Assembly (NCBI GenBank): GCA_010093705.1
Contig: MU006089.1
Span: forward strand, 291,570 to 355,569
DNA length: 64,000 nucleotides
Source: Patellaria atrata CBS 101060
Taxonomy: Eukaryota
Direction of reading: 5' to 3'
The notes below the pieces were generated by a model. It saw only the letters and a list, made by a program, of their open reading frames with translations, was not told where the DNA came from and ran no database searches. Shown piece after piece: positions 1 to 6,883 of this stretch (positions are counted from its first letter, which is position 1; every line of letters starts with the position of its first letter). The position numbers and the translations under genes are program-made.

Positions 1-1
1 C

Positions 2-1954
2 ATATACGAAGCGCTCGTCAGCCGTGCTATCGAACACAAGCTCTCCGACCTCTTAACCCCCTCCGTTCTCCTTCCACTCCGCGCAAAAGCAGAACCCGCC
101 GAAGTTACCCCGACGTTATTTAAGATTCTGAGGATCCAAGACAGAGGATGGTCGAAAGAAGACTGGCAAGCATGGATAGATAATCTGGGTGTGGTGGAGT
201 GGAAAGATCTGATTGAGACCTTAGACCAGGGAGAGATCAAAGAATGGATTACGGGACCTGCGGATGATGAAGTGGATGAGGAAGGGATGGCGGAAGAGCA
301 AGGTTGTTTGCTAGATTCCTTTGAAATTGGAAATCTTTTGCTCCAGAACTTGCGGAACGTCAACCAAGCGTTATTACATTGCCGGGCTATCTTTGAGTCC
401 GAGCAAGATACAAAGGACATTTCTCGGGAGGAAATTGGCCAGGTTACCAGTGATATCGTAAAAGGACTCGACCTACTTGACGTTGCAGCTGCGTTCACTC
501 GAGAAACGAGCAAGGCCCAAACGGAGGAGTCGGTATTTGAACATAAGTATCCTGATCCTGCGACAGAATCATCAGATCAACATGAGAAGAAGAGTTCGAA
601 GAAGCGTAAACTGGATTCTAATACTAGCTCAAAACAATTACCTCCTCCCGATACAGATAGTTCAAGCAATCGAAATAGTATCGGAAGCAGACCGCAAGAA
701 CTGTCGAAAAAGCTTAAAGAATCCTTGATTTCTACTAGAGTACGCAGCTATAGCCACAAACATAACTTCCTCGCCCAGCCTACCGTTCCTGTAAACGACG
801 AGGACTATGAACTATACCTGAAGGATGTGTATAGGTTCGCGCGGCAAAGCGGCCTCAAGCGCAAACGCGCAATAGCATGCGTGATTGAAGCTGTTGAAGT
901 GCTACCTGAAACGTTGAGATGTCATCAACAGCTTTTGTTTGCGTCTCCATCAACTGAATTGTTGGATGGGAATTTGGAAGAACCTCCAACTGAAGATCAA
1001 GAAATGCCACTTATAGTCTCTGACGCGGAGACAGAGATCAAAACCCGAGCGCCAATAGTTCGTGAAGGGCAATTATTGACGCCGGTGGCAAGTTTTTCGA
1101 GGCAATATCCGGTAGAATTACCACATCCAAAACTGGAAGCCCCAGCTCGAAAGAATGATAACCAAACTGAGAGCGCTAGTAATGGGAGAAAAAAGAAGTT
1201 CAAGAAGGCCAAAGACATGCAAACTACACCTCAATCGAGTTCGTTGCAAAACTCATCGAAACCAGCTACTCTTGATGAATTTGACAGCTCTGATAGACGG
1301 AGTAAATCACTCCGCAAGCGAGAGAGAAAACGTGACCGCAAAGCAAACCAGAACCACTCATTCACTAACAGCTTACTCTCTGACAACAAGCGATTCCCTC
1401 AAGGCACGGTGACACCTTCGCAACATTTTGTTTCCACTAGTCCCGCTACAGAGGTAACCTCAATACTACAAGCACGATCGCCATCCCTAGAATTGGGTAC
1501 ATCTTTCTCTCACATTGGGCCGTCCATAAAATCATTTGAAAAGAGGTCTTCTTTTATGAACCAGAGACTGAACCTTCCTGGAAGGAGAATTATTCCTGAG
1601 AGTCCGGAAATTGGAGATAGCATTACTGTGTATTCTAGATCAAAGCGAGAGCGTGTCGATAGGGAAAATAAATCTAACTCGCAAAAGCACCTATTCGACT
1701 CGATCGCACCACAGACAATGCCTGGATCTACGGGTAAAGGAAATGAAGTCGAGAACTTCCTTACCCCCAATGGAGAAGCAATCCCCTACGGACTTCCAAC
1801 TTCCGCACGAAGACGTGTCTCATTTGATATGATATCTCCAATGGAGCAGCATTTTCCAAGCCCAATGATTCGCCCAGCGAAGCCGGCGATGAGGATTGGC
1901 CCGAATGCGAACAATGGAGAGAAGAGGGACCCTCTAGGGGAGAAAAACATTTAA
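2..1954 (+). CDS. Lys/Ser-rich, largely low-complexity protein, 5'-truncated by the window edge; probably the N-terminal part of the adjacent glycosylase locus
   Basis: Frame 2 is open from base 2 (IYEALVSRAIEHK...) to TAA at 1954. It contains NLS-like basic clusters (KKSSKKRK, RKKKFKK, RKRERKRDRK) and one helical segment (YLKDVYRFARQSGL). No start codon can be assigned inside the window. Confidence 0.7.
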   Translation: MYEALVSRAIEHKLSDLLTPSVLLPLRAKAEPAEVTPTLFKILRIQDRGWSKEDWQAWIDNLGVVEWKDLIETLDQGEIKEWITGPADDEVDEEGMAEEQGCLLDSFEIGNLLLQNLRNVNQALLHCRAIFESEQDTKDISREEIGQVTSDIVKGLDLLDVAAAFTRETSKAQTEESVFEHKYPDPATESSDQHEKKSSKKRKLDSNTSSKQLPPPDTDSSSNRNSIGSRPQELSKKLKESLISTRVRSYSHKHNFLAQPTVPVNDEDYELYLKDVYRFARQSGLKRKRAIACVIEAVEVLPETLRCHQQLLFASPSTELLDGNLEEPPTEDQEMPLIVSDAETEIKTRAPIVREGQLLTPVASFSRQYPVELPHPKLEAPARKNDNQTESASNGRKKKFKKAKDMQTTPQSSSLQNSSKPATLDEFDSSDRRSKSLRKRERKRDRKANQNHSFTNSLLSDNKRFPQGTVTPSQHFVSTSPATEVTSILQARSPSLELGTSFSHIGPSIKSFEKRSSFMNQRLNLPGRRIIPESPEIGDSITVYSRSKRERVDRENKSNSQKHLFDSIAPQTMPGSTGKGNEVENFLTPNGEAIPYGLPTSARRRVSFDMISPMEQHFPSPMIRPAKPAMRIGPNANNGEKRDPLGEKNI

Positions 1955-3243
1955 CACACTCTACTAATGATCATGAATCGGGAGCTGCGGCGGACTCGCA
2001 GTTGAAGATTCATGGAGCAGCGGTGGATACGAACAATCATAGACAGATACAGACCGCAGGATCTTCAAACTCCGGATCAGAAATGGATGCTCCTGGCGAT
2101 GACACTAGAGATCGCTATAGTCCAGTTGACTGGCACACAATTAATAGCTTTACCCAGTTTGAGAGGGGCATAGCTAGAAACATTGGACAATTACAGCATT
2201 CCTCTTCTCCCGCGCTGGAAACCAAAATTTTGGACCCTAATGGAAGTTCACAGCGGAGCGAGAATTACACAAGCGCCAAATCGGAACCATTTGGTACACC
2301 TCCGCTAAGAAACGGCGAGGAACACATACGATCTAATATCTCGGAAACCGAAGATCACTCCTTCTCCGGTCTATCAGAACTATTAGACTCATATCAAGAT
2401 TCTCCAAAAAAAAACAAATCCACACCTACGACTCCACGAAAACAAACGGGCAAATACTCACATCACTTCCCGCAGCTGACAGAAAAGAAAAACATACGAC
2501 CGCCACCAGGGACAATTTCCTGCTTACCATTTCCTCCACTCGAAGCTTCTTCATTTGGACTTATACAAGAAAAACTAGCGGCCGATCCCTTCATTCTACT
2601 AGTAGCAGTTGTATTCCTCAATAAAACAAAGGGAACGGCAGCAATACCTAAATTCTGGCAGTTAATCGAACGTTACCCTACTCCAGAAGCGCTTGCTGAA
2701 GCCGACAGCTGTGAGCTTACGGACATAATACAACAATTGGGCCTCCAGAACGAGCGGGCGAAAACACTTATCAATCTGGCCAATGTATGGGTTGCAGATC
2801 CCCCCTCGAAGGGAAGGAGACATAGAAAACTCAATTACCCTGAGCCTAGAGAGGGGTGCAATATTCTTCCAAGAGAAATACTCAAAGACGACGACGAGCG
2901 CTTCGGAGCGTGGGAGATTGCCCATCTACCTGGCTGCGGTGCATATGCCCTGGACAGTTGGCGCATCTTTTGCCGTGATAAACTCCGGGGCCTTGCTCTA
3001 GACTGGAATGGAACAGGTGCCGGCAGTCCATTTCAACCAGAGTGGATGAGAGTGGTCCCCAAGGATAAGGAGCTCAGGGCTTTTCTTCGATGGATGTGGT
3101 TGAAGCATGGATGGACGTGGGATCCAAAGACTGGCCGCAAAGAGAGAACTACGTTCGAGCTCCAGCAACAGGCCAAGGCTGGAGATATTGTGTGGGATTT
3201 ACAGAAGAGTCAACAGGTCGGTGTTACCAAGGAGTCGGATTGA
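1828..3243 (+). CDS. MBD4-like HhH-GPD DNA glycosylase domain (G/T mismatch glycosylase family)
   Basis: FGLIQEKLAADPFILLVAVVFLNKTKG...YPTPEALAEA...LGLQNERA...HLPGCGAYALDSWRIF matches the MBD4 catalytic HhH fold. Frame 1 is open from 1828; the first in-frame ATG is at 2083. Confidence 0.85.
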   Translation, partial: YDISNGAAFSKPNDSPSEAGDEDWPECEQWREEGPSRGEKHLTHSTNDHESGAAADSQLKIHGAAVDTNNHRQIQTAGSSNSGSEMDAPGDDTRDRYSPVDWHTINSFTQFERGIARNIGQLQHSSSPALETKILDPNGSSQRSENYTSAKSEPFGTPPLRNGEEHIRSNISETEDHSFSGLSELLDSYQDSPKKNKSTPTTPRKQTGKYSHHFPQLTEKKNIRPPPGTISCLPFPPLEASSFGLIQEKLAADPFILLVAVVFLNKTKGTAAIPKFWQLIERYPTPEALAEADSCELTDIIQQLGLQNERAKTLINLANVWVADPPSKGRRHRKLNYPEPREGCNILPREILKDDDERFGAWEIAHLPGCGAYALDSWRIFCRDKLRGLALDWNGTGAGSPFQPEWMRVVPKDKELRAFLRWMWLKHGWTWDPKTGRKERTTFELQQQAKAGDIVWDLQKSQQVGVTKESD

Positions 3244-4141
3244 GTAAGTTTTTCTTATTGGAGGTGGATATGTTATCCCTTGACTTGTCAGGGCTTCCTC
3301 AGTCTGCTATACAATACACTCAGCCATAGGACAGGCTATTCAGCAAAACACAAAAAACGAGGTCATTAAAAGAACTAAAGTTTGCCACAATTCCTTTAGA
3401 TGTAGAGCAAGCGTACGGAGTGCCTACAATGAGAAAGGAGAGATGATAGATGTTTACATGAGCATGGAGGTGGTCAATTTCATTTAGCGTGCAGGTCGTT
3501 GTTTGCTGGCAATGTAGCGCAACTAGGGACCGCTGTTATGCATCAGCTGGCCTAAAAACATCTATGGTCGTCTTTCCTACATAGATACCTAGATCTCTCA
3601 TTCCTCTAGCATTTCTAATGTTTTCTTTGCGGAGTTTTACTGTCTTGGTGGACGGCAGTGGGGACATTATGTGTCAAAAACTCTTATACCCCCAACTGGA
3701 TCTCAATTCCAACTTTGTATACAGCTTGAAATAGAATCCCAAAGTATCTAAAATATCGAGTTGAAGCATGAGTGATGCCGGTTCGCCAAGCCAACAGCAC
3801 GTCTTTGCAGACCACGTCACGGGCCCGGCCACCTCCAACTTTCGAACCTTCCATCTCACGATAATCGGCCGTTCTAACATATCAAATCCTCCAACATAGA
3901 GACAATCAGCCATTCACGGTCTTCCGTATCCTTATATAGACTCGCACCAGTCGGGCAGCAACAGGGAAACCGAGGCGTGGCGTGGATTTTGAATGTGCCC
4001 GCTATCCAATCACAACGTCCGTTGCGCTCTGTAACCGCCAGACGCTGTGCTCTTCAGTTACGTTACCGGGTTCCTAAGCCCGAATCGCTCACCAACATAG
4101 AGTCACCGATATTTCTGCTGTCTATATGATCGCTAGATATC

Positions 4142-6883
4142 ATGTCATCAAGAGATTCAGATCCCCCCAGGCGTCGGAGGAAAGAATACGACGCAAAACC
4201 CAAGGACAAGGACAGGGACAAGGAGCGCCATCGAAGTCATAAATCTTCACGCCGCAAATCTGAAAAAGACCCTGAGCGTGAATCCAGCACGCGCGACCGT
4301 TCTCCGCCTACCCGCACTCGGTCGCATACACACTCGCATAAGAAGATGGCAGTATCGATTCCCGAGATGGAACGGCGGGCTTCCACCGCGTCGCCTGGCG
4401 CTTCTAGGACGAGTCTTCCGTATCCTAGCTTCTCGAAAGCACATAGTAAGGAGGCTGTCCGGAGTAAAGAAGAGTTTCCGACTCAGCCTAAAGTATCAAT
4501 GTACACTCCAGATCCAACAGATCTCGGCCAGGGAGACGAAACAAGTGAGGATATACCAAAAACGGGAACGCAGCAGACCGCAGGCGGAGGAGAAGCACCA
4601 CCTAGTCCACCGCTCACCGCAGTAGAGCCGGAGCTAAGAAGAACGAGCAGTGGTAACAGCATGAGGAGAGTGACAGTGGAAGTGGGCTCGGACGTGGAGG
4701 CCAGAAGAAAAATGTCTAAAGAGGGGTTGAGAGCGTCGTCGAGACCCAGGTCGTCAGCTTCAAAGTCAAGTTTGGGACAGACGGTGCAGATTATAGACGA
4801 TGGGTCTCAACTATCAGGTATTACGGAATCCTCGAAACCGAGCACTGTGCGGGAAGTGTCACCGATGGTTGTAATACTAGGAGATGGCTCTGGACTAGGT
4901 GCCCATGGAAGGAGGAGTAATCGGACGCCATCCGGGATAGGCTCGCAACGGAACTCCATAGTTACCCAGTCGACTACAGACTCTGACGCGACATCCATCG
5001 CTCCTGAGCGAAAAGCACAACCCAGACCCCCCGCGCTAATCAACCACAATGAGTCTTCCCCTCTATCTATCATGGAATCGTCTCCACGGACACCGACACC
5101 TCGAGACGTTACCTTTCCCCCTGTCGACCCAGACCAGAAAGATCCACCGATGGTTCAGATCTTCACAGACGATGACTTCCGAGCTCAATCCGTAGGAGCA
5201 ATGCATGCCCCCCCACCCCCTCCACCTCCTCCACCGCCTCCACCGCCCCCAACGATGAATACTGCAGATTTACCTCGTGTTGACTATCTACTTCACAACG
5301 GCGGGTTATCACAGCCACTCCCTAAGAACATGCTATCAGCAGTAACCCCGTCCGCCCCAGTCACCACTTACCATCAATATCAATCTCCTCGTATTGGCGA
5401 TCAAAACCCCCGTCTAAACGTCCAACAATTTTTCGCTCCAATCATAAATGTACTAGACGGTTACTCTCAGGTTCTCTCCAAAAATGGATCGATAGCAGTA
5501 GCGACGGGATATCGCTCTGTAGCGCGGCGTCTATTAGACCGGCTTGAGGCTGTATTTGCTCGCAATATCTCATCAGAAACGTGCGACTGCATAATGTGTA
5601 GATCAAATCCAAACCGCCCTCTATCTGAGGAAGAGGATACTGGTCTAAGTTGGGGTGAAATATTAGAATATGTCTCGGGCCGGCGAGAACTACCAATGTG
5701 GCCTCCATTTTCGATTGCACCAAATTCGGATGGTACAGAGGGACTCGGAATTATAGGCATGGAAGCTCCCATGCAAAAGATGGACATCGACGTCCCAGAA
5801 GAGTATCGAGCCCATTACGTCCGGCAGAACAAAAAAACCAAAAATACAGTGCAGAAATGGTTGGCAAGTCAACCAGATATGCCTTCAAGCCCTCCTCAGG
5901 ATGTTGATGATAACACCCTCACATTTGCAATCTTAACTCACCTTGAACCGGAGAAGAGACCTATTTTCAATGCACTGCTACGGGGCATGTCCACTTTACC
6001 AGCCTCACGTGCTCCAACGCCGATGGAGAACCCAAGATCTGAGTTATTGCAAAAGACATCTCTAGCATTGCAACGACTATACCGTCTCACAGACCCTCCG
6101 CGGGATGCTGAATGCACGTTATACTTATTGAACAATCCAGAATTGCATGGCATATTAGTAACCATTGCAGCGGTAAGTGCTGGAGAATGGGATCTTCTAA
6201 TATCTGGGAGATTCGATGGGTTCTTGTGGAGCGGGGCAGAAGACCCCTATCCGCGTCCCTTTGATCCGGGCACAATTTCTAGAGGACCATCCAGAGGACC
6301 GGTAGCAACACCGCTTTCCAGGACAACGACTCCATTCAGCATGGGCATCCCCTCCCGAGGTGCGACGCCATTCCGAGTCGGAACTCCTCATAACCCCATG
6401 TTCATGCCTTCACGATCTCAAACACCGGCAATAGGTGCAGGGTTTGGTGCACCCGTGCAGATGGACGAGGAAACCGAAATCGCCGTCCTTGCGGAAGTTG
6501 AACGAGAAATATACCTCGGGATGGAAGCGCTCGAAGACGCTTTTGAGGCTTTACATAGCAAAGCAGAAGGGGTCCGACGCGCGCTACGTGAGAGGAGCAC
6601 CGGCCTAGCCATGGCCGCGCAGGCCCGTCGAGGCTCCGGAGCCGAAGACATCGGGGTTAGGCTTGGCACACCGGCTTCCGGCATTGGGGGCTGGGGGGGA
6701 ATGGGGTGGGAAAGTGAGACAGACGATGGGGTTGATGATAGGAGCGAGATCGCACCAGATGATTCGGCGAGCAATATAAGTTATAATAGAAGGAGGGGTC
6801 CGAAGAGGAGGCATGCGAGGGCGACGCCAGCCCCGGTGGAGGAGGAGGATGAGAGTGGAACGGAAGAGGTGATGGTAAGGTAG
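4142..6883 (+). CDS. 913-aa intronless protein of unknown function
   Basis: Long ATG-initiated ORF with a basic Arg/Ser N-terminus, a poly-Pro tract, a globular middle region with CDCIMC, and a C-terminal coiled-coil-like segment (AEVEREIYLGMEALEDAFEALH). Confidence 0.85.
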   Translation: MSSRDSDPPRRRRKEYDAKPKDKDRDKERHRSHKSSRRKSEKDPERESSTRDRSPPTRTRSHTHSHKKMAVSIPEMERRASTASPGASRTSLPYPSFSKAHSKEAVRSKEEFPTQPKVSMYTPDPTDLGQGDETSEDIPKTGTQQTAGGGEAPPSPPLTAVEPELRRTSSGNSMRRVTVEVGSDVEARRKMSKEGLRASSRPRSSASKSSLGQTVQIIDDGSQLSGITESSKPSTVREVSPMVVILGDGSGLGAHGRRSNRTPSGIGSQRNSIVTQSTTDSDATSIAPERKAQPRPPALINHNESSPLSIMESSPRTPTPRDVTFPPVDPDQKDPPMVQIFTDDDFRAQSVGAMHAPPPPPPPPPPPPPPTMNTADLPRVDYLLHNGGLSQPLPKNMLSAVTPSAPVTTYHQYQSPRIGDQNPRLNVQQFFAPIINVLDGYSQVLSKNGSIAVATGYRSVARRLLDRLEAVFARNISSETCDCIMCRSNPNRPLSEEEDTGLSWGEILEYVSGRRELPMWPPFSIAPNSDGTEGLGIIGMEAPMQKMDIDVPEEYRAHYVRQNKKTKNTVQKWLASQPDMPSSPPQDVDDNTLTFAILTHLEPEKRPIFNALLRGMSTLPASRAPTPMENPRSELLQKTSLALQRLYRLTDPPRDAECTLYLLNNPELHGILVTIAAVSAGEWDLLISGRFDGFLWSGAEDPYPRPFDPGTISRGPSRGPVATPLSRTTTPFSMGIPSRGATPFRVGTPHNPMFMPSRSQTPAIGAGFGAPVQMDEETEIAVLAEVEREIYLGMEALEDAFEALHSKAEGVRRALRERSTGLAMAAQARRGSGAEDIGVRLGTPASGIGGWGGMGWESETDDGVDDRSEIAPDDSASNISYNRRRGPKRRHARATPAPVEEEDESGTEEVMVR
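5207..5251 (+). repeat. CCN trinucleotide tract encoding poly-proline
   Basis: gcccccccaccccctccacctcctccaccgcctccaccgccccca encodes A followed by about 14 Pro. Confidence 0.85.

Follow-up and report, generated by a model that had tools for sequence, protein, structure and literature searches.

A candidate programmed -1 ribosomal frameshift in an MBD4-type DNA glycosylase gene of Pezizomycotina

The first part of a 64,000-nucleotide stretch of the Patellaria atrata CBS 101060 genome (assembly GCA_010093705.1, contig MU006089.1, positions 291,570 to 355,569 of the forward strand), hereafter the window, encodes a DNA glycosylase with a catalytic domain of the MBD4 type, whose gene is divided between two overlapping open reading frames (ORFs). 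We propose that this locus is probably expressed by programmed -1 ribosomal frameshifting, ancient in Pezizomycotina: many related fungi show the same split, with the catalytic domain always in the -1 frame, and the point at which the frame changes lies at a candidate shift codon followed by an RNA structure with conserved pairing. It is this comparative evidence that suggests the term 'programmed', whereas the occurrence and efficiency of slippage, and the roles of both products, are what we infer from the sequences.

One gene in two overlapping reading frames

The upstream ORF (ORF1) lies in frame 2, has its 5' end open at the window edge and runs for 650 codons to a C-terminal GEKNI, while the downstream one (ORF2) lies in frame 1 and has 471 codons counted from stop to stop. 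According to the ORF listing they overlap by 127 nucleotides (nt), with ORF2 in the -1 frame relative to ORF1, and frame 1 is open for 85 codons from 1828 before its earliest ATG at 2083. These coordinates, given in an initial annotation of the DNA, were all confirmed. Positions 1850-1870, which read CAT-TTT-CCA-AGC-CCA-ATG-ATT in the ORF1 frame, had been said there to contain a possible slippery site other than a canonical X_XXY_YYZ heptamer, and the heptamer is indeed G_CAU_UUU. The length of the overlap is unremarkable alone, since 42 stop-free codons have a chance probability of about 0.13 (three stops among 64 codons); what goes beyond chance, judging from the relatives, is the conserved -1 arrangement together with the junction sequence.

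On comparative grounds the two ORFs are halves of one ancestral gene, because a motif of about 47 residues in ORF1, recognized by a hidden Markov model (HMM), is found N-terminal of the glycosylase domain in homologues (60 of the 326 fetched from fungi, by an iterated HMM). The motif itself matches no Pfam family. ORF1 carries basic clusters resembling nuclear localization signals (NLS) and no Pfam domain; likewise, Pfam gave no domain in the ORF1s of 14 relatives, and no methyl-CpG-binding domain (MBD) family either there or in the ORF1 of the window. A profile search with 19 ORF1s returned solely the window's own ORF1 call, P0327, an ORF1-only protein of 667 residues from the same contig that consists of 17 residues followed by the ORF1 of the window.

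ORF2 aligns over the full domain length with 15 distinct MBD4 glycosylase-domain sequences (E 6.6e-21 to 8.6e-19). Its LDSWRIFC aligns with NDSYRIFC of MBD4, which places the Asp codon of the active-site region at 2953-2955; we take this Asp to be the MBD4 catalytic residue. As judged from the alignments, ORF2 is MBD4-like in its catalytic domain only, and the glycosylase domain is intact. Its homologues number 1665 at E<=1e-3 among cluster representatives, the named ones being nearly all from Pezizomycotina; the best are only 57-67% identical and come from lichen-associated and rock fungi. The linker of ORF2 (residues 13-190) showed low, uninformative similarity to long homologues in phmmer.

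The glycosylase domain was aligned with 13 metagenomic homologues and the alignment was used for DNA retrieval, in which 337 pattern matches yielded 165 encoding a relative, of which 80 loci were kept. The motif was seen upstream of the domain in 27 of these metagenomic fungal loci and was undetected in 53, many of them on truncated contigs. In all 27 the ORF bearing the motif and the ORF bearing the domain are separate, overlap by 19-130 nt (stop codon included) and have the domain in the -1 frame, and in none are motif and domain found in one ORF; the conservation of the -1 overlap predicted by the initial annotation is thus present wherever both halves were seen. Counting upstream ORFs of 250 codons or more, the ORF1-type frame relation has one in 42 of the 80 loci, as against none of 80 in the +1 control frame, where the longest has 216 codons. 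The split-gene sequences fall into 20 clusters when grouped at 80% domain identity and into 11 at 70%, and their nearest named relatives belong to the Eurotiales (Aspergillus, Penicillium, Thermoascus), to Acarospora- and Trapelia-like lichen fungi of the Lecanoromycetes, and to Helotiales and Pseudogymnoascus among the Leotiomycetes.

The change of frame can be placed within narrow limits. L019 leaves only 19 nt for it, and L008, L014 and L025 leave 25 nt each, with U_UUY or A_AAR inside every one of these intervals, and all 34 loci examined have one of these in ORF1 phase within the overlap. Upstream of the site the -1 frame contains 1-9 stops in 60 codons, and an NLS-like basic cluster lies in the ORF1 frame at most 60 codons upstream in 19 of 26 sequences. 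Between related pairs, mismatches in the 240 nt upstream are most frequent at third positions of ORF1 (0.432 versus 0.32-0.34), and those in the 240 nt downstream at third positions of ORF2 (0.383 versus 0.29-0.32). Together these patterns suggest that the coding frame switches at the site; codon usage in a sliding window was too weak to locate the switch.

Public protein calls were inspected alongside the loci. The 'long' jgi, ena and lgn proteins were rejected as instances of fused uninterrupted genes, as those matching fetched loci are single-ORF calls of ORF2 only. Three lgn/jgi proteins (P0007, P0176 and P0073), known from protein sequences alone, carry both motif and domain. When the Aspergillus models P0085, P0195, P0201, P0206 and P0184 (1357-1621 residues) are set against L033 11358-13841, the next downstream gene is fused too and a third tblastn segment falls in another frame; these models are probably annotation run-ons.

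Junction elements and constraint on the RNA

Forty-one loci carry a junction element belonging to one of two sequence classes. Group A, made up of the window and 26 loci with 12 distinct sequences, has UUU or UUC in the ORF1 frame after a U as the shift codon, with the ORF1 stop 0-8 codons later (32 in the window). UUUY, a 6-nt spacer, CC-RAU-GA, a hairpin and GA-GG are present in 13 of 13 distinct sequences, in line with the conservation of TTTTC-N-CCAATGAT that the initial annotation had named as support for recoding. Group B comprises 15 loci with 13 distinct sequences, and has an AAA codon (once AAC) after an A, a spacer of 4-5 nt and then a stem of up to 12 base pairs (bp), in the upper part of which the ORF1 stop is located; its loop CCAGG complements a downstream CCUGG, giving an H-type pseudoknot. 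The ORF1 stop follows immediately upon the UUU/AAA codon in L020, L028, L033, L050 and L059. True heptamers occur in some relatives, as G_GGU_UUU (L019, L020, L058, L060, L065) or G_GGA_AAA (L008, L014), and most have single-tRNA sites, e.g. G_UCA_AAA and G_GAU_UUU. The window reads CAG-CAU-UUU-CCA at 1847-1858, and CAU_UUU is also found in L038 and L040.

The pairing of these elements points to selection on the RNA. For the 8 pairs of the group-A hairpin, 91-92% of the alignment cells are paired, 5 of the 8 pairs are changed on both sides, and the covariation of 0.437 (versus 0.246 in shuffles) was reached by 0 of 500 shuffles. With the window left out and the basal helix and loop-downstream pairs included, 84% are paired and the covariation is 0.452 against 0.231, again with 0 of 500. 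When the partners in this set are shifted by 1-2 columns, pairing falls to 26-40%; in group B the stem and pseudoknot are 89% paired, compared to 29-43% when the partners are slid. Synonymous positions behave comparably: where the amino acid of a column is invariant, its third codon base is also invariant in 2 of 2 columns in group A and 4 of 4 in group B within 22 codons of the site, whereas across the rest of ORF2 the same measure gives 0 of 73 and 0 of 75.

A covariance model of group A, built from the 12 sequences other than that of the window, matches the window's junction (Table 1), and the match lies exactly at the T_TTT noted earlier. Run over 960 kb of fetched loci, the model recovers the 26 group-A loci; the sole extra match (L008 5097-5180, also in the near-identical L009 and L010; 22 bits, E 0.03) lies in the ORF2 of a group-B locus and is probably due to chance. 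By this comparison the window belongs to the group-A junction family and its site is ancestral, not new. Neither the window junction nor a group-B junction matched any Rfam family.

In sequence pattern the group-A element resembles a kink-turn (K-turn), i.e. a C helix, a 3-nt bulge, tandem G.A/A.G pairs, further non-Watson-Crick pairs and an NC helix, as defined in a published account (PMC4316175). All 13 group-A sequences have the corresponding pattern CC-RAU-GA-N...N-GA-GG, whose bases at the same time encode Asp-Asp and Asp-Glu in the -1 frame, and in most of them the C helix is extendable to 3-5 bp with varied pair types. The loop of the group-A hairpin, NUGACN (columns 39-44 of alignment A3), reads as AUG, GUG or UUG in the ORF2 frame (L016, L028, L038, L058, L060, L065 and others). 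Single-ORF callers start ORF2 proteins beginning with MTA at the loop AUG, and the window has GAA in that place. The loop start codon may have arisen by coincidence, may serve as an alternative start, or may belong to a pseudoknot in which UGAC pairs with a GUCA further downstream.

A second candidate site in the window, G_AAA_AAC at 1942-1948, was dropped, as the relatives conserve a site about 90 nt upstream of it. It is near-canonical and stands in ORF1 phase 3 nt before the ORF1 stop. An imperfect hairpin at 1960-2027 has a predicted energy of -31.3 kcal/mol (z -2.9, with 0 of 200 shuffles as stable), and its arms overlap a degenerate direct repeat. As background for this candidate, 82 of 9126 in-phase codons carry a relaxed heptamer, and an equally stable fold is found in 3.4% of ORF windows.

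Table 1. Features of the split glycosylase locus, in window coordinates
Feature	Position	Strand	Remarks
ORF1, zero frame	2..1954	+	full-length call of 667 residues, starting 17 codons upstream of the window
ORF1 motif of about 47 residues	737..871	+	residues 246-290; E 7e-12; HMM from other proteins only
ORF2, -1 frame	1828..3243	+	conserved junction peptide begins at the shift site
Proposed shift site G_CAU_UUU	1849..1855	+	core U_UUU 1852-1855; Phe codon 1853-1855 in the ORF1 frame
Covariance-model match	1849..1921	+	sole match in 64 kb, both strands; 29.9 bits, E 2e-5, full model length
Spacer, shift codon to invariant CC	1856..1861	+	6 nt
Stimulator candidate	1862..1894	+	basal pairs C1862-G1894 and C1863-G1893; 3-nt bulge 1864-1866
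Stimulator internal loop	1867-1868 with 1891-1892; 1869 with 1890	+	tandem G.A/A.G, then U1869.U1890
Stimulator stem and loop	1870-1874/1885-1889; loop 1875-1884	+	5 bp; pairs read from the window sequence
ORF1 stop TAA	1952..1954	+	32 codons past the shift codon; 0-8 codons in relatives
First in-frame ATG of ORF2	2083..2085	+	possible start of a stand-alone 386-residue glycosylase, if initiated separately
MBD4-type HhH-GPD glycosylase domain	2455..3108	+	PF00730; 34 bits versus cut-off 26.2

The arrangement might alternatively serve separate products with no frameshift, the glycosylase being made from its own start by an internal promoter, leaky scanning or reinitiation, with the RNA element acting in that process. 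The starts considered were the ATG at 2083 and, in relatives, the AUG, GUG or UUG of the hairpin loop. Such a reading would accord with the stand-alone glycosylases of 270-500 residues annotated in many fungi, with the in-frame AUG in the conserved loop of several relatives, at which callers start, and with the five loci in which the ORF1 stop comes right after UUU/AAA. However, separate initiation needs neither a fixed -1 frame, nor an overlap, nor an in-phase U_UUY or A_AAR, and the conserved peptide of the -1 frame already begins at the shift site, before any AUG. Moreover, frame 1 of the window is already open 85 codons ahead of its first ATG and lacks the loop start codon, and loci differ in how far the next AUG of ORF2 lies from the ORF1 stop. 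We therefore regard separate initiation as unlikely.

Damage to a once continuous gene, whether a lineage-specific 1-nt deletion (a pseudogene or a recent fission) or an indel of assembly or sequencing, often accounts for split genes; since the linker shows little conservation, a frameshift could be tolerable there, and the length of the overlap equals the chance expectation. Yet the same split is found at the homologous nucleotide in the 41 related loci of two sequence classes, the covariance-model match marks the site as ancestral, and the glycosylase domain is intact. At the level of the reads, contigs re-assembled from two DNA runs (1-5214, depth 324; 95-3915, depth 463) agree with the window in every letter and without gaps, which speaks against the sequencing indel that the initial annotation had kept as an alternative. 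The reads rule out an assembly slip, not a mutation in that isolate. Damage of either kind appears extremely improbable. The least certain spot of the assembly in this region is a poly-C tract at 5185-5263, encoding a proline run in the ORF 4130-6883, at which the contigs of both runs break (loose ends CCCCC...).

Search for frame-joining introns and points of weakness

Introns are the usual cause of frame changes in fungal genes, and public gene models of relatives place introns at this junction. The frames might accordingly be joined by a weak or unconventional intron, such as that at 1734-1849 (GTAAAG...CAG) entertained in the initial annotation, or by a structure-guided, non-spliceosomal excision of 3n+2 nt. 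As a reference, 21 likely introns of the window were chosen by the pattern GTRNGT...CTRAY...YAG flanked by ORFs. In the window 222 GT/GC-AG pairs, 1734-1849 among them, could fuse the frames, but none has a GTRNGT donor, the best being GTAAAG at 1734. A search for GTRNGT across 1500-1954 was negative, and the overlap at 1828-1954 is without any GT dinucleotide, the donors listed there being all GC. The proposed intron thus has a non-canonical donor and its span includes coding sequence in the frame of ORF1, which remains open across it; both points speak against the proposal. There is no canonical frame-fixing intron in the window, in agreement with the remark in the initial annotation that the overlap has no strong intron.

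The relatives give a similar picture. A strict canonical 3n+2 intron that would join the frames is present in 1 of 26 distinct loci, and 17 of the 26 have none even with a loose donor. Introns arising in independent lineages should produce all three frame relations rather than be 3n+2 throughout, yet all 27 loci with the motif, and 20 clusters, show the -1 relation. Further, fused public models from close species of Aspergillus and Penicillium are at odds over the junction, with six different points along the junction peptide at which they pass into the -1 frame, and single-ORF gene callers begin ORF2 at an internal AUG; such discordance is the pattern expected of software bridging an intron-less frameshift. 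The fetched loci all look genomic, with no poly(A) ends. Splicing of the IRE1/HAC1 type was considered and dropped, no paired hairpins with 7-nt loops of that consensus being seen by eye. Joining by splicing or by an unconventional excision is in our view very unlikely.

Several observations count against programmed frameshifting at this locus or weaken the evidence for it. The site of the window, G_CAU_UUU, departs from X_XXY_YYZ, such that one tRNA only can re-pair. Its stimulator is the most divergent in group A: the loop is 3 nt (one codon) shorter, the UGAC/GUCA pairing between loop and downstream sequence is missing, and 1856-1925 folds with ordinary stability (z -1.18, with 20 of 200 shuffles as good); several group-A elements folded singly are likewise no more stable than shuffles. 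In group B the covariation is slight, as the arms are near-invariant, and 43 of 500 shuffles reach the observed pairing. The bases of the elements double as codons for a conserved acidic peptide of the -1 frame, so that their conservation is partly at the protein level, and the pairs behind the mismatch periodicity are few, divergent and partly non-independent. The two sequencing runs (X1 and X2) share one sample and are possibly the source of the assembly, so that their agreement is not independent of it. Lastly, L004, L041 and L048 have the -1 split without a recognizable junction element, and in L001/L002, L055, L057/L075 and L079 the domain ends a long uninterrupted ORF, so that the split is not universal.

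The element-less splits lie at 2827-2872 in L004, 1466-1535 in L041 and 1666-1852 in L048, that of L004 resembling a degenerate group-B junction. In L001, L002, L055, L057, L075 and L079, 822-1106 codons are open upstream of the domain and neither motif nor element was detected; these loci may represent a different gene architecture or subfamily.

Proposed mechanism and relation to known systems

If programmed frameshifting operates, most ribosomes translating ORF1 would terminate at 1952-1954 and release the 667-residue protein with its conserved motif and basic clusters. A fraction would slip back by one base while decoding the Phe codon UUU at 1853-1855, which is preceded by U1852: tRNA-Phe would re-pair on UUU 1852-1854 and translation would go on in frame 1, yielding a fusion of 635 + 462 = 1097 residues with the MBD4-type glycosylase domain at its C-terminus. 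The slip would be promoted by the RNA structure 3-6 nt downstream (1862-1894), composed of the predicted basal helix, K-turn-like internal loop and stem. The spacer, 6 nt if measured to the invariant CC and 3 nt to the extended basal helix, would fit a shift codon in the A site, going by canonical geometry. The initial annotation had favoured just such a -1 slip of tRNA-Phe on T_TTT, a prediction now supported by the conserved phase, the split and the model match.

A more elaborate version, which we consider quite unlikely, is that the group-A stimulator is a genuine K-turn recruiting a protein of the L7Ae family or another binder, whereby the shift would be tuned in trans according to growth or DNA-damage state, while Leotiomycete-like relatives would have swapped it for a self-sufficient pseudoknot. 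If true, a cellular DNA-repair gene would have a -1 frameshift switch that responds to a protein and is conserved between filamentous-ascomycete classes.

The one well-documented fungal case found is YIP3 (PaYIP3), in which Pezizomycotina conserve a -1 shift at U_UUU_UCC (Malagnac et al., 2013, PMC3777964; Atkins et al., 2016, PMC5009743). It has been shown by experiment: the complementary DNA is colinear with the gene, a GFP fusion was detected, and a yeast reporter gave about 1% (PMC3777964). YIP3 and the glycosylase gene have in common that they are cellular genes of non-retroelement nature in filamentous ascomycetes, with ORF2 in the -1 frame, a non-canonical site in a U-run, a close downstream stem-loop or pseudoknot with compensatory changes, conservation across classes, and a short and a long product, the latter two predicted here from sequence. 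They differ in that YIP3 is a Rab-GDI displacement factor whereas the present gene encodes a DNA glycosylase, and in that the conserved half is ORF1 there, with ORF2 domainless, whereas here ORF2 holds the catalytic domain. What sets the glycosylase gene apart from YIP3 further is the use of two interchangeable sites (U_UUY, A_AAR) and two stimulators, class by class, while frameshifting has been demonstrated in YIP3 and is proposed here from sequence comparison.

Canonical viral -1 frameshifting uses an X_XXY_YYZ heptamer with an H-type pseudoknot 5-9 nt downstream. The junction elements share with it the geometry of a shift codon, a 3-6 nt spacer and a hairpin or pseudoknot, and in some relatives a true heptamer; unlike it, the window and most relatives permit re-pairing of one tRNA only, and the gene is cellular, with no viral or retroelement ancestry visible (0 Pfam domains in the 14 ORF1s). 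In the 2A-dependent -1 frameshifting of cardioviruses, the site G_GNU_UUU is combined with a plain stem-loop stimulator and a trans-acting protein. Sites of the form G_GNU_UUU and a plain stem-loop are found here too, and a trans-acting binder is conceivable; in contrast, no binder is known here and the K-turn-like motif is a match of sequence pattern only. Human and mouse MBD4 (7kz0, 4dk9, 1ngn and others) share the HhH-GPD domain including ...G.G.Y..DS.RIFC (E 6.6e-21), but the N-terminal part of the fungal protein is unrelated and in another frame, with no methyl-CpG-binding domain found in ORF1. MBD4 is not known to be expressed by recoding.

A full-text literature search, with subscription journals outside its coverage, gave no description of frameshifting in a fungal glycosylase gene. 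The Podospora genome paper mentions 14 genes possibly requiring a frameshift or read-through (PMC2441463). If programmed frameshifting holds for the glycosylase, it would constitute a second, independent fungal case beside YIP3, in a DNA-repair enzyme and spanning lineages related to Eurotiales, Lecanoromycetes and Leotiomycetes. To our knowledge, conserved -1 frameshifting is very rare in eukaryotic cellular genes of non-retroelement origin. The family would further offer two natural variants of shift site and stimulator for mechanistic comparison, and would explain the trouble that annotation has with these loci, namely the split gene, ORF2 proteins begun at an internal AUG and mutually inconsistent introns. 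For the fungi themselves, it would mean that the abundant product is a non-catalytic protein and the glycosylase a minor form of it extended at the C-terminus, which would be one way of holding a potentially mutagenic enzyme in a fixed, low proportion to the module that targets or regulates it.

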